Shown here: positions 17,527 to 58,765 of the stretch, piece by piece
How positions within the stretch are numbered: the first letter of the stretch is position 1
Layout: every line of letters begins with the position of its first letter
The notes under the pieces: generated by a model
The model's database searches: none
What the model was told of the DNA's origin: nothing
The model's input: the letters and a program-made list of their open reading frames with translations, nothing else
Source of the DNA: a virus
Virus record (IMG/VR): IMGVR_UViG_3300009124_000007
Span: 1 to 64,000 of that record
Strand: one strand, 5' to 3'
Length of the DNA: 64,000 bases
Program-made: the position numbers and the translations under genes

Positions 17527-17600
17527 CGAGCATTAGCGCAGTTTGGTAGCGCATTCGCTTTGGGAGCGAAGGGTCGTAGGTTCAAATCCTACATGCTCGA
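17527..17600 (+). tRNA. tRNA-Pro(TGG)
   Basis: Acceptor CGAGCAT/ATGCTCG; anticodon arm TTCGC-TTTGGGA-GCGAA; T loop TTCAAAT; CCA not encoded. Confidence 0.95.
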
Positions 17601-17620
17601 CTCCGTGTGAAGGAAGTGTA

Positions 17621-53193: not shown

Positions 53194-53626
53194 TTATGAA
53201 AACCCCTGGATTTATGAAGGTACTCCCTTCACTAGCGAGGATATTGGTGATTACTACGGGTTTGTGTACAGTATCCGTAACCTCATTTCTGATAGGCGTT
53301 ACATTGGCAGAAAGTACTTCTGGTCGTTACGAAAGCCTAGAGGCAAAAGTAGGAGAGTTAGAAGTGAAAGTGACTGGAAGAAATACTATGGCAGTTCTGA
53401 TGAAGTTGCTGCAGATGTCAAAGAGTATGGAAAGATACAGTTTGAAAGAACTATAATCAGCCTACATAAAACAAAGGGTCAATGCAATTTTGAAGAGACC
53501 CGACAACTTTTTCTACACAATGTACTAACGGAGGAGATGTCAGATGGAACACCTGCTTACTACAACAGCAATATTCTCGGTCGGTACATGCGGAAGGACT
53601 ATTTCCGAGGTGGCACTTGCTCTTGA
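53177..53626 (+). CDS. GIY-YIG family endonuclease
   Basis: GFVYSIRN...YIGRK, YYGSS, YYNSNI. Confidence 0.82.
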   Translation: MEKQIDYENPWIYEGTPFTSEDIGDYYGFVYSIRNLISDRRYIGRKYFWSLRKPRGKSRRVRSESDWKKYYGSSDEVAADVKEYGKIQFERTIISLHKTKGQCNFEETRQLFLHNVLTEEMSDGTPAYYNSNILGRYMRKDYFRGGTCS

Positions 53627-53652
53627 CGCACCAGGGTAACACCTGCTATAAT
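53623..53652 (+). promoter_or_regulatory. sigma70-type early promoter
   Basis: TTGACG-18-TATAAT with extended TG. Confidence 0.75.
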
Positions 53653-53669: not shown

Positions 53670-53897
<228 letters not shown>

Positions 53898-53937
53898 TTC
53901 CTCGCAAGAGGAAATGTTCAATGCTTAGGACAGAGAT

Positions 53938-54141: not shown

Positions 54142-54381
54142 ATGAAAACCAAAGTCCTCCTAGAACGTTATCCTTATCGATACGTGGAGTGTGGCATCCT
54201 AGAAATCAATGGGATGCCCGACTTCCGTCTCCAAAAGGCAAATGAGTACACAAAGCGATACTCTGACATCTATCTTTTTGACAATGGCGCTCAATGTTCA
54301 CTCGCTATTGAGGACTTTGAATACACGAAATGGTTAGATCCTGATCGTGTTCCCTGTTATGTACGTGATTCCTGCTCTTGA
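54142..54381 (+). CDS. hypothetical protein
   Basis: ERYPYRYVECG...EDFEYTKWLDP, typical of cyanophage ORFs (recalled). Confidence 0.75.
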   Translation: MKTKVLLERYPYRYVECGILEINGMPDFRLQKANEYTKRYSDIYLFDNGAQCSLAIEDFEYTKWLDPDRVPCYVRDSCS

Positions 54382-54383
54382 TT

Positions 54384-54599
54384 ATGAACGTGTATGATCA
54401 GGCAGTTGCTTCTGCAAAAGAAGCATTCAAAACTGCCCTAGATACTGATGTAGATGCTTCTACATTGTCTGAACTCTGGAGACATTATCTTGGACTACGA
54501 GCAATCGTTGACAAGATTGCCCAGACAGACAAACCACAATTCAATATTGATTTACAACAATCGCCTTTGACTTTTGGAGATGATCGCATCAGTCTCTAG
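54384..54599 (+). CDS. hypothetical protein
   Basis: LSELWRHYLGL. Confidence 0.65.
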   Translation: MNVYDQAVASAKEAFKTALDTDVDASTLSELWRHYLGLRAIVDKIAQTDKPQFNIDLQQSPLTFGDDRISL

Positions 54600-54680
54600 T
54601 CTTTGCCAATAGACTCTAAACTAGATGGTTGTAACGCATGAGAGATGTTTATACAACTCGTTGACGCGAACACCCCAAAA

Positions 54681-54875
54681 GAGTTTCCCCGTTCTCACAA
54701 AACGGGGTGGTGGAGTCAATTATGACCCTCTTAGTCTCGGGAAGACATAAAACTCGCCCTGGTCGGGATGGTCCTAGGACCCCTGGAGTTTCCTGCTTCT
54801 CTCAAAAGCAGGTGGTGCGGATGGGAACTCTCCCGCCTGTTTCTTATTTCAGTAAAAAATAAGTGGCGAGCCTGC
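54681..54875 (+). ncRNA. structured RNA with three pseudoknot-TGGYG units (wcaG/manA-like cyanophage motif)
   Basis: Covarying H-type pseudoknots at 54681, 54786 and 54837, each followed by TGGYG. Confidence 0.75.
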
Positions 54876-54902
54876 TCTGGGGGACTTGACCCTCCCCCTC
54901 AA

Positions 54903-54984
54903 GCACATGTGGCGGAATTGGTAGACGCGCTGGGTTTAGGTTCCAGTGACTTATGTCGTGGAGGTTCAAGTCCTCTCATGTGTA
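54903..54984 (+). tRNA. tRNA-Leu(TAG)
   Basis: Acceptor GCACATG/CATGTGT; anticodon arm CTGGG-TTTAGGT-TCCAG; long variable arm; T loop TTCAAGT. Confidence 0.93.
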
Positions 54985-55002
54985 TACAATGAACTTAGTA
55001 TT

Positions 55003-55650
55003 ATGACTCTTCTAAATCTTTTTCCCTGTCCAATTATTCGAGAACCTGCTCATCCCGAACATAACTATCACCAGGTACAGCAAGAGATCCTACCTATCCT
55101 GAAAGCAGTAGAGGAAGGTGATCTAGAATGTGTGTCTTACATCTATAGAGACTGTAAGAAAGACAAGCAACTTGCTAAGGTCGGTAATGTTCTACCCACT
55201 TGGCAGATTGAAGATGATCTGATTGGCAAATACAATCTAGTAAATCTAGAGAAACGTATCTACGAGGCACTAGGAAAGTATTTGGGTTTCATCAAAGCAA
55301 ATAAATCTGAGCACAATAAAGAAAACAAGAGTGCTGTTATCAAATGCTCTTGGATCAATATTGCCGAACGTGGAAAGTCCCACGACATTCATGCTCATCC
55401 TGGGTATGATATCGCTGGCATTTATTACTTTAGGGTGTCTGAAGATCAGGGTGGTATTACCTTCAACAATCCTAACATGATGGTGTATAATGGTAACTTC
55501 CCTGAGGGTCAGATGACTCCCATGAGTATGGAGATCATTCCACAAGACGGAGATCTCTTCTTGTTTCCTGCCTGGTTGCAGCACGGAACAAGACCAAACA
55601 AAACTGATGACCCTAGGGTCAGTATTTCATTCAACATCAACATCGAATAA
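55003..55650 (+). CDS. 2OG-Fe(II) oxygenase family protein
   Basis: SWIN, HAH, GIYY, LFPAWLQHG, RVSISFN. Confidence 0.85.
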   Translation: MTLLNLFPCPIIREPAHPEHNYHQVQQEILPILKAVEEGDLECVSYIYRDCKKDKQLAKVGNVLPTWQIEDDLIGKYNLVNLEKRIYEALGKYLGFIKANKSEHNKENKSAVIKCSWINIAERGKSHDIHAHPGYDIAGIYYFRVSEDQGGITFNNPNMMVYNGNFPEGQMTPMSMEIIPQDGDLFLFPAWLQHGTRPNKTDDPRVSISFNINIE

Positions 55651-57518: not shown

Positions 57519-57557
57519 GGTAAACAAATGTAACGGACCTTTACGGAGTCGTTACAA

Positions 57558-57670
57558 ACCCCTGCCGCTTGACCGAGACTAGGCAGGGTTACCAATCCGT
57601 CTCTCATATCCTTACCTGAGGGTGGTAAGGAAATAAGTATCTCCACCATTTCCCTGATGGACCTACTTCT
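57558..57670 (+). ncRNA. PhotoRC-II-like structured psbA leader
   Basis: CCCTGCC/GGCAGGG stem; GAGAC/GTCTC pseudoknot; CCTTACC/GGTAAGG hairpin; 5' of psbA. Confidence 0.75.
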
Positions 57671-57682
57671 TTGTACAATTTC

Positions 57683-58765
57683 ATGGCTAACTCTACTCTC
57701 GTTCAACAACGACAACAATCTACCTGGGACAACTTCTGTGACTGGGTAACTAGCACTGACAACCGTCTTTATGTTGGTTGGTTCGGTGTCCTGATGATTC
57801 CCTGCCTCTTGGCAGCGACCATCTGCTTCATCGTTGCCTTCGTGGCAGCACCTCCCGTCGATATTGACGGTATCCGTGAACCCGTCGCTGGTTCGCTTCT
57901 CTACGGTAACAACATCATCTCTGGTGCAGTTGTTCCTTCTTCTAACGCTATCGGTCTTCACTTCTATCCCATCTGGGAAGCAGCAAGTCTGGATGAATGG
58001 CTCTATAACGGTGGTCCTTTCCAACTCGTTATCTTCCACTTCCTGATCGGCATCTATGCTTACATGGGTCGTGAGTGGGAACTTTCTTACCGTCTGGGTA
58101 TGCGTCCCTGGATCTGCGTTGCATACTCTGCTCCAGTCGCTGCTGCGAGTGCAGTGTTCCTCGTCTATCCTTTCGGTCAGGGTTCTTTCTCCGATGCTAT
58201 GCCTCTGGGTATCAGTGGCACCTTCAACTACATGCTTGTCTTCCAAGCAGAGCACAACATCCTGATGCACCCCTTCCACATGCTCGGCGTAGCAGGTGTG
58301 TTTGGCGGTTCTCTGTTCAGTGCAATGCACGGTTCGCTGGTTACTTCTTCGCTGGTTCGTGAGACCACCGAAAATGAGTCACAGAACTATGGTTATAAGT
58401 TTGGTCAAGAAGAAGAGACCTACAACATTGTCGCTGCTCACGGTTACTTTGGTCGTCTGATTTTCCAGTACGCATCGTTCAACAACTCCCGTTCGCTGCA
58501 CTTCTTCCTCGCAGCATGGCCTGTTGTCGGCATCTGGTTCACTGCTCTTGGTGTTAGCACCATGGCATTCAACCTGAACGGTTTCAACTTCAACCAGTCC
58601 ATCATTGATGGTCAGGGTCGCGTTCTGAACACCTGGGCAGACGTTCTCAACCGTGCTGGTCTTGGTATGGAAGTCATGCACGAGCGTAATGCTCACAACT
58701 TCCCTCTTGACCTCGCTGCTGCTGAAAGCACCCCTGTTGCTCTCACTGCTCCTTCTATCGGTTGA
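57683..58765 (+). CDS. psbA: photosystem II D1 protein
   Basis: [26 protein letters not shown]; no intron seen. Confidence 0.99.

Follow-up and report, generated by a model that had tools for sequence, protein, structure and literature searches.

The wcaG motif of a T4-like cyanophage lies within a longer modular RNA whose tails are complementary to host tRNA 3′ ends

What kind of RNA is encoded by a run of similarly built pseudoknots that stands just before a tRNA gene in a cyanophage, and what might such an RNA do? The window, by which we mean the whole 64 kb stretch of viral DNA analyzed here, is a T4-like cyanomyophage contig whose nearest isolates are S-RIM8-type Synechococcus phages (~81% identity); its parent IMG/VR record is 77 kb long, with a completeness estimate of 41%. 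The initial annotation of this DNA described three pseudoknot-forming units ending in TGGYG, and a script read all three exactly where and as they had been placed and spelled. They are listed here with the Rfam match that covers two of them.

54681-54712, + strand: unit 1, GAG-TTT-CCCCGTT-CTC-ACAA-AACGGGG-TGGTG
54786-54817, + strand: unit 2, GAG-TTT-CCTGCTT-CTC-TCAA-AAGCAGG-TGGTG
54837-54868, + strand: unit 3, CTG-TTT-CTTATTT-CAG-TAAA-AAATAAG-TGGCG
54784-54877, + strand: Rfam wcaG RNA (RF01761), 83.4 bits, E 4e-14, gathering score 42

A generic scan for N3-TTT-hairpin-TGGYG over both strands of the 64 kb window matched units 1-3 only.

The core of the observation is the already catalogued wcaG RNA. 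The Rfam scan that had been suggested for this locus returned a full-length match, spanning model positions 1-98 of 98 and running from unit 2 through the P2 hairpin to unit 3; unit 1 gave 18.6 bits against the same model, a sub-threshold and partial match to the first hairpin and UGGUG. The features that define wcaG membership are present, namely two UGGYG elements 3′ of P1 and P3 (UGGUG at 54813-54817 and UGGCG at 54864-54868), three hairpins (P1-P3), the first and third of which covary, and a pseudoknot joining the loop of P3 to the 5′ flank of that hairpin (CUG at 54837-54839 with CAG at 54850-54852). Weinberg 2010 (PMC2864571) reported wcaG from marine metagenomes and cyanophages and took it for a probable cis-regulator and riboswitch candidate, and the supplement of that paper noted that a dimeric protein might bind at the two UGGYG elements; what the initial annotation said of wcaG, that it carries UGGYG elements and has no assigned function, agrees with this account. 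In the literature mentioning the wcaG motif we found no further statement on function, no array and no tRNA link. An iron-response-element match in Rfam was sub-threshold (20.9 bits) and was set aside.

All three knots had been proposed to covary, and comparison among relatives bears this out to different degrees. Scanning IMG/VR with a pattern for the conserved core gave 119 loci, 86 of them with at least one parsed unit, making 87 with the window. Units built like the three above, which we call A-type, number two in 43 of the 86 related loci, three in 30 and four in 1. When 62 distinct sequences (61 relatives and the window) were aligned with MAFFT, the unit-3 knot was 100% paired, with 3 of 3 pairs changed on both sides among the types TGG:CCA, CTG:CAG, AGG:CCT, TAG:CTA, CAG:CTG and one GAG:CTC, and a register-tolerant test found it paired in 40 of 41 unique sequences. 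The stems behave similarly: in the same 62 sequences pairing reaches 95% in P1 and 99% in P3, with both partners altered at 6 of the 7 pairs in either stem, and P2 is conserved. Slid and shuffled controls came down to 36-58% paired. Judged by this covariation the unit-3 knot is solid, and it is the one already annotated by Weinberg, whose Stockholm file carries a pseudoknot line (SS_cons_1) on the second hairpin and none on the first (PMC2864571).

MAFFT lost the register of the P1 loop, and the P1 knot was therefore tested by a register-tolerant script with a permutation control. At the unit-2 position a 3-bp knot can form in 31 of 55 unique sequences, compared with 23.3 when the 5′ arms are permuted, and 7 of 5000 permutations reach 31; a unit-2 knot, absent from the published annotation, is plausible and moderately supported by these counts. 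At the unit-1 position the predicted 3-bp knot is present in 8 of 25 (0 of 5000 permutations), the others being plain hairpins of 8-9 bp with short loops, and here the knot holds in a subset only, the window included. The third of the proposed pseudoknots is thus upheld throughout, the second to a moderate degree, and the first for that subset. Across the 62 sequences G-UUUC, the loop AA and UGGYG are almost invariant. When 54672-54902 is folded at minimum free energy with nested pairs only, the result (−80.2 kcal/mol, z = −1.29) is indistinguishable from shuffles, and it says little because pseudoknots cannot be represented in a nested fold.

The wcaG motif is the last two modules of a longer RNA of four to five modules, 54595-54900, made up as follows.

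54595-54630, + strand: module K, with hairpin AGUCU (54598-54602)/AGACU (54611-54615), an A-rich linker and tail UGGUU (54626-54630)
54681-54712, + strand: unit 1, an A-type module, with 3-bp knot stem GAG/CUC, UUU, 7-bp stem and UGGUG
54708-54726, + strand: unit-1 tail UGGUGGAGUCA (54708-54718) and spacer hairpin GUCA/UGAC (54715-54726)
54734-54783, + strand: module B, with hairpin GUCU/AGAC (54734-54737/54743-54746), loop CGGGA, an A-rich linker and CC
54760-54782, + strand: module B tail UGGUCGGGAUG (54760-54770) and spacer hairpin (54769-54782)
54786-54836, + strand: unit 2, the P1 of wcaG, with knot GAG/CUC, tail UGGUGCGGAUG (54813-54823) and P2 hairpin (54822-54835)
54837-54874, + strand: unit 3, the P3 of wcaG, with knot CUG/CAG and terminal tail UGGCGAGCCUG (54864-54874)
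54879-54898, + strand: G+C-rich closing hairpin GGGGGA/UCCCCC with no U-run, in place of the terminator of most relatives

Modules start at 54681, 54734, 54786 and 54837, a spacing of ~50 nt, and with four to five modules at that spacing the idea of a multivalent array, already voiced in the initial annotation, has held up. The unit-1 tail motif TGGTGGAG[TC]CA (as RNA, UGGUGGAG(U/C)CA) occurs 5′ of the wcaG core in 72 of the 87 loci, at −50, −102 or ~−300, and module B lies at ~−56 from the core in 17 of the 87. Hairpins of the B type are found at 115 of 134 non-A sites ending in UGG across the loci, and their stem covaries widely (AGUC/GACU, CGUG/CACG, CAUG/CAUG, UGCC/GGCA and others); a second stem in module B between loop GG and CC is unproven, since this pairing never varies. 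The loops of B-type hairpins (for example in loci L073, L093 and L116) fall into two conserved classes, YCGGRAY and AUGGAGA, and the AUGGAGA class resembles an anticodon loop in having U at position 2 and a purine at position 6. Module K resembles the B type and is conserved in 4 of the 87 loci as a hairpin with flanking CUAG repeats. A related knot had been drawn at 54591-54625; its AGUCU/AGACU hairpin and the CUAG repeats are kept in three relatives, but its first AGTCT arm (54591-54595) is specific to the window. Module K overlaps the stop codon of the ORF at 54378-54599; a readthrough or frameshift signal there was considered, and just 14 more codons lie beyond that stop. Four relatives (L018, L051, L058 and L089) have a fourth A-type unit 3′ of the wcaG motif, and their third unit ends in UGGUG, not UGGCG. 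Since the third unit carries UGGUG when a fourth follows, UGGCG marks the array's last module.

Repeated short units capable of forming pseudoknots had suggested a comparison with ToxI, the antitoxin RNA of type III toxin-antitoxin systems, which is cut to monomers that inhibit an endoribonuclease. The likeness is loose and goes no further than units of ~32-50 nt of this general kind. ToxI consists of tandem, near-identical repeats of ~36 nt, but the units here have diverged (stems CCCCGTT, CCTGCTT and CTTATTT) and come in two module architectures. In addition, Pfam and PHROGs identified no ToxN/AbiQ/CptN-type endoribonuclease gene among the neighboring ORFs, no toxin-like gene is adjacent to the array, and in the relatives no toxin ORF comes after it. 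The comparison does not survive this, and we give an antitoxin of the ToxI kind almost no weight.

If the array is an RNA, then its place in the transcript that carries it should constrain what it can do. The surrounding features are these.

17527-17601: phage tRNA-Pro(UGG)
53144-53652: SegE-type GIY-YIG homing endonuclease gene (Pfam PF19835, E 8e-54)
53623-53652, + strand: promoter-like site TTGACG-18-TATAAT with TG, 11/12, a consensus match only
53823-53898: phage tRNA-Arg(UCU)
53938-54138, + strand: phrog_552 small gene (PHROGs)
54142-54381, + strand: phrog_481 small gene (PHROGs)
54378-54599, + strand: third small ORF, its stop codon overlapped by module K
54903-54984, + strand: phage tRNA-Leu(UAG), 34 nt past the last UGGCG
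57552-57644: PhotoRC-II RNA (RF01717), 56.5 bits, directly 5′ of psbA
57671-58765: psbA

By Pfam and PHROGs, then, the array's neighbors are a SegE-like endonuclease, three small ORFs with no function assigned, tRNA-Leu, a 2OG-Fe(II) oxygenase and a peroxiredoxin; a Pfam search of the three small ORFs 5′ of the array gave no match, and the label ‘NAD synthetase’ that PHROGs attaches to the SegE-type family looks like a misnomer. PhotoRC-II before psbA is the usual arrangement in cyanomyophages. The promoter-like match, which is strong and sigma-70-like, begins at the 3′ end of the SegE gene, just 5′ of tRNA-Arg(UCU). A transcript running through tRNA-Arg, the three small ORFs and the array likely starts at this site, and a scan of the + strand from there to the array found no full terminator (hairpin plus T-run).

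At the other end of the array, the relatives are informative. Among 68 distinct loci with a terminal UGGCG module, an intrinsic terminator, defined as a strong hairpin and a run of at least 5 T no more than 70 nt past the last UGGCG, closes the array in 53, 13-25 nt past the motif, and these terminators are unrelated and variable in sequence. In 44 of the 53 a TATAAT-like hexamer then follows within ~20 nt (related loci L002-L116, 13-70 nt past the last UGGCG), which means that the transcript end and the next start share a few dozen bases. A tRNA gene with no T-run before it lies 30-60 nt 3′ of the array in 10 of the 68 loci, and 5 have neither, one of these five being a terminator that the rule missed. 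The window belongs to the tRNA class, with the closing hairpin followed by tRNA-Leu(UAG) at 54903. On its 5′ side the array begins at or just past the stop codon of the upstream gene; homologs of phrog_481 lie upstream on the same strand in 58 of the 87 loci and homologs of phrog_552 in 42, and the genes 5′ of the array are kept among relatives whereas those 3′ of it vary.

These arrangements bear directly on whether the array is a riboswitch or another cis-regulator of downstream genes, as the Rfam type ‘Cis-reg’ and Weinberg's ‘probably’ would have it. Complex, conserved, pseudoknotted folds are what one meets in small aptamers, and in the window no terminator stands between the array and tRNA-Leu with the 2OG-Fe(II) oxygenase gene. 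The 5′ UTR position that goes with the Rfam type, an annotation and not a defining feature, is nevertheless not what is found, given the strong terminators of variable sequence close behind the motif, most with a promoter-like hexamer after them, and the tRNA genes that take their place elsewhere. Nothing like a conserved anti-terminator is apparent, the terminator stems varying freely beside a conserved motif, and the downstream genes that a regulator would act on are the variable ones. We consider cis-regulation very unlikely. With a terminator or tRNA downstream, upstream genes kept and downstream genes variable, the array is better described as a 3′-terminal or free-standing RNA than as a leader, and to judge from these gene orders it looks like the mark of a transcript 3′ end.

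A position at the transcript end could also be the whole point. If the knots served to stabilize the upstream mRNA, to stall host exoribonucleases (compare the flavivirus xrRNAs) or to mark processing in transcripts that contain tRNAs, then an array that starts at or just past a stop codon and ends directly 5′ of a terminator or tRNA would be well placed, and the nuclease roadblock proposed in the initial annotation fits the 3′-terminal position. On the other hand, a terminator hairpin already protects the 3′ end, and such a role leaves unexplained both the conserved, indeed invariant, single-stranded tails and the tRNA-end match described below. A structural element of this kind seems to us distinctly unlikely.

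What, then, might the tails pair with? UGGYG is the complement of CRCCA, and CRCCA is the usual 3′ end of a tRNA. As a host proxy we used the 43 tRNAs of Synechococcus sp. MIT S9451, which has a psbA 94% identical to that of the window and may not be the phage's host, and each tail (UGGY plus 7 nt) was compared with tRNA nucleotides 66-73 plus CCA, 11 positions in all. The module B tail pairs with tRNA-Pro(CGG) at 11 of 11 positions, all Watson-Crick, as does the unit-2 tail with both tRNA-Leu(CAG) and tRNA-Leu(GAG); the unit-1 tail forms 10 Watson-Crick pairs and 1 G-U with tRNA-Ala(GGC). The unit-3 tail reaches 10/11 with tRNA-Arg(CCG) and, by hand comparison, 10/11 with tRNA-Arg(ACG), and the module K tail has no clear partner among the 43 tRNAs (best 9/11). 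Beyond UGGY, the next seven nucleotides of the tail have the sequence of the tRNA's own 5′ acceptor strand, and Y tracks the discriminator base, UGGU tails going with A73 tRNAs and the UGGC tail with G73 tRNAs. In MIT S9451, 42 of the 43 tRNA genes lack an encoded CCA, so the match is to mature tRNA and not to DNA.

How much weight these matches can bear depends on the null. Among random tails matched for composition, 11 Watson-Crick pairs are reached with P = 0.0034; with G-U allowed the null is loose, at P = 0.03 for 11/11 and P = 0.29 for at least 10. Control targets (reversed ends or 5′ strands) gave at most 9/11. With 2 nt of difference between them, tails B and 2 are probably duplicates, and their matches are therefore not independent. 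Within the host family the matched ends recur: the Leu end is found in 76 of 81 genomes, the Pro end in 65 of 81 and the Ala end in most, and each of the two Arg ends turns up in tRNA context throughout the matches listed. Another common unit-3 tail among the relatives, UGGCGUGCAUG, also pairs with Arg(CCG) at 10/11. The terminal tails UGGCGAGCCUG and UGGCGUGCAUG each fit one G73 tRNA-Arg end (ACG and CCG), both with a mismatch at nt 71. Among the matches listed, the unit-3 tail variants have no perfect partner in tRNA context and are one mismatch short of the two Arg ends. None of the 81 host-family genomes offers a partner in tRNA context for a frequent variant of the B tail, UGGUCGGUGAA/U. 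In some modules the claim of complementarity extends no further than UGGU plus 3-4 nt. The spacer hairpins are moreover predicted to take up the 3′ parts of the tails, and pairing past ACCA would need the acceptor stem to be opened. Phage-encoded tRNAs were also considered as partners and are weaker than those of the host, except that tail B forms 10 pairs and 1 G-U with some phage tRNA-Pro.

The same tails could instead be protein sites. UGGYG elements repeated beside compact folds would offer a scaffold or sponge for a dimeric or multimeric RNA-binding protein of host or phage, a suggestion made by Weinberg (PMC2864571) and, as a protein-binding array or decoy, in the initial annotation, and both the near invariance of G-UUUC, loop AA and UGGYG and the ~50-nt spacing of the modules would suit it. 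No candidate protein emerged, however. The phrog_481 protein (79 aa), encoded next to the array in so many relatives, has a confident predicted structure (pLDDT 87) of a four-stranded sheet and two helices, but Foldseek against the PDB returned nothing better than E = 0.15, and an RNA-binding signature is absent. More to the point, the nucleotides after UGGY differ from module to module and yet are conserved at each position, which one repeated binding site leaves unexplained. A protein scaffold is possible, though we doubt it, and where the sequence evidence can be put to a test it favors the 3′ ends of tRNAs as the partner.

Our preferred reading, to which we would assign a probability of roughly 40%, is that the array works in trans, as a multi-module RNA docking host tRNAs at their 3′ ends. 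Positions 54595-54900 would form one non-coding RNA, probably transcribed at the end of the operon of tRNA-Arg and small ORFs, with its 3′ end made by an RNase P cut at the 5′ end of tRNA-Leu in this phage and by a terminator in most relatives. Each A-type module folds as an H-type pseudoknot and each B-type module as a covarying hairpin with a possible loop-to-CC knot, and the last helix of every module runs directly into a single-stranded tail of UGGY plus ~7 nt. These tails may then dock specific host tRNAs at their mature 3′ ends, with UGGY pairing with the discriminator base and CCA in the manner of the T-box UGGN, and the new helix stacking on that of the module. Because the nucleotides after UGGY repeat the tRNA's 5′ acceptor strand, the pairing could extend into the acceptor stem.

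If tRNAs are bound in this way, the RNA may sequester them or sense them. The matched host isoacceptors, Pro-CGG, Leu-CAG/GAG, Arg-CCG or Arg-ACG, and Ala-GGC, mostly read host-favored codons ending in G or C, and the phage supplies isoacceptors for codons ending in A. A ‘tRNA dock’ that captured these host isoacceptors might tilt translation toward phage messages, or it might report on tRNA charging; as a specific proposal we think this unlikely. Codon usage, which for the host proxy rests on 6314 codons, runs in the expected direction: CCG is used at 0.05 in the phage vs 0.21 in the host proxy, CGG at 0.02 vs 0.16, and CUG, a codon of one matched tRNA-Leu, at 0.22 vs 0.40. The matched Pro(CGG) and Arg(CCG) tRNAs read only G-ending codons. 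Among the tRNAs of the phage itself, Pro(UGG), Arg(UCU) and Leu(UAG) carry the amino acids of three of the four matched host tRNAs and read A-ending codons. The pattern of codon usage and phage tRNAs fits the tRNA reading and proves nothing. If the binding is real, however, a virus would be acting on host tRNAs through RNA-RNA pairing, beside the carriage of tRNA genes already known in cyanophages, and an orphan riboswitch candidate of 2010 would gain named tRNA partners that can be tested at the bench.

Docking of host tRNA ends by the array invites comparison with other RNAs that recognize or accompany tRNAs. In a T-box riboswitch, UGGN pairs with the NCCA-3′ end of a tRNA, and the array likewise presents a single-stranded UGGY beside a helix, complementary to the discriminator and CCA, with U opposite A73 and C opposite G73. 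It is nonetheless not a T-box: Stem I with its specifier loop and codon is absent, as is the antiterminator/sequestrator helix, and no T-box family appeared in a permissive Rfam scan of 54400-55050. Where the T-box sequence sits in a helix bulge, the array's UGGY follows a pseudoknot; the array also has several tails for different tRNAs, and its complementarity runs on into the acceptor stem.

The primer-binding site of retroviruses and LTR-retroelements begins with UGG and over 18 nt complements one particular tRNA in its mature form, at the 3′ end and with the added CCA included. The tails share the UGG start and the complementarity to a mature 3′ end, a resemblance and not membership, as the match in the array is 11-13 nt and not 18, and four sites for different tRNAs stand in a row, each behind a pseudoknot; no reverse transcriptase was found among the neighboring genes checked. 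In the tRNA region of phage T4, two stable, structured RNAs, species 1 and 2 (rnaC/rnaD), have no assigned function and are probably released by tRNA processing. The array may be compared with these in context alone, as an RNA among the tRNA genes of a T4-type phage.

The closest known system remains the published wcaG motif, with which the array shares the T4-like cyanophage setting, the two UGGYG elements and the P3 pseudoknot. It differs in that, here and in most relatives, one to three extra modules lie 5′ of the motif, in that a knot fits P1 too, and in that the array stands at a transcript end and not in a 5′ UTR. What is new relative to the catalogue is therefore a longer, modular RNA, its position at the end of a transcript, and a set of tails complementary to host tRNA ends that bear CCA.
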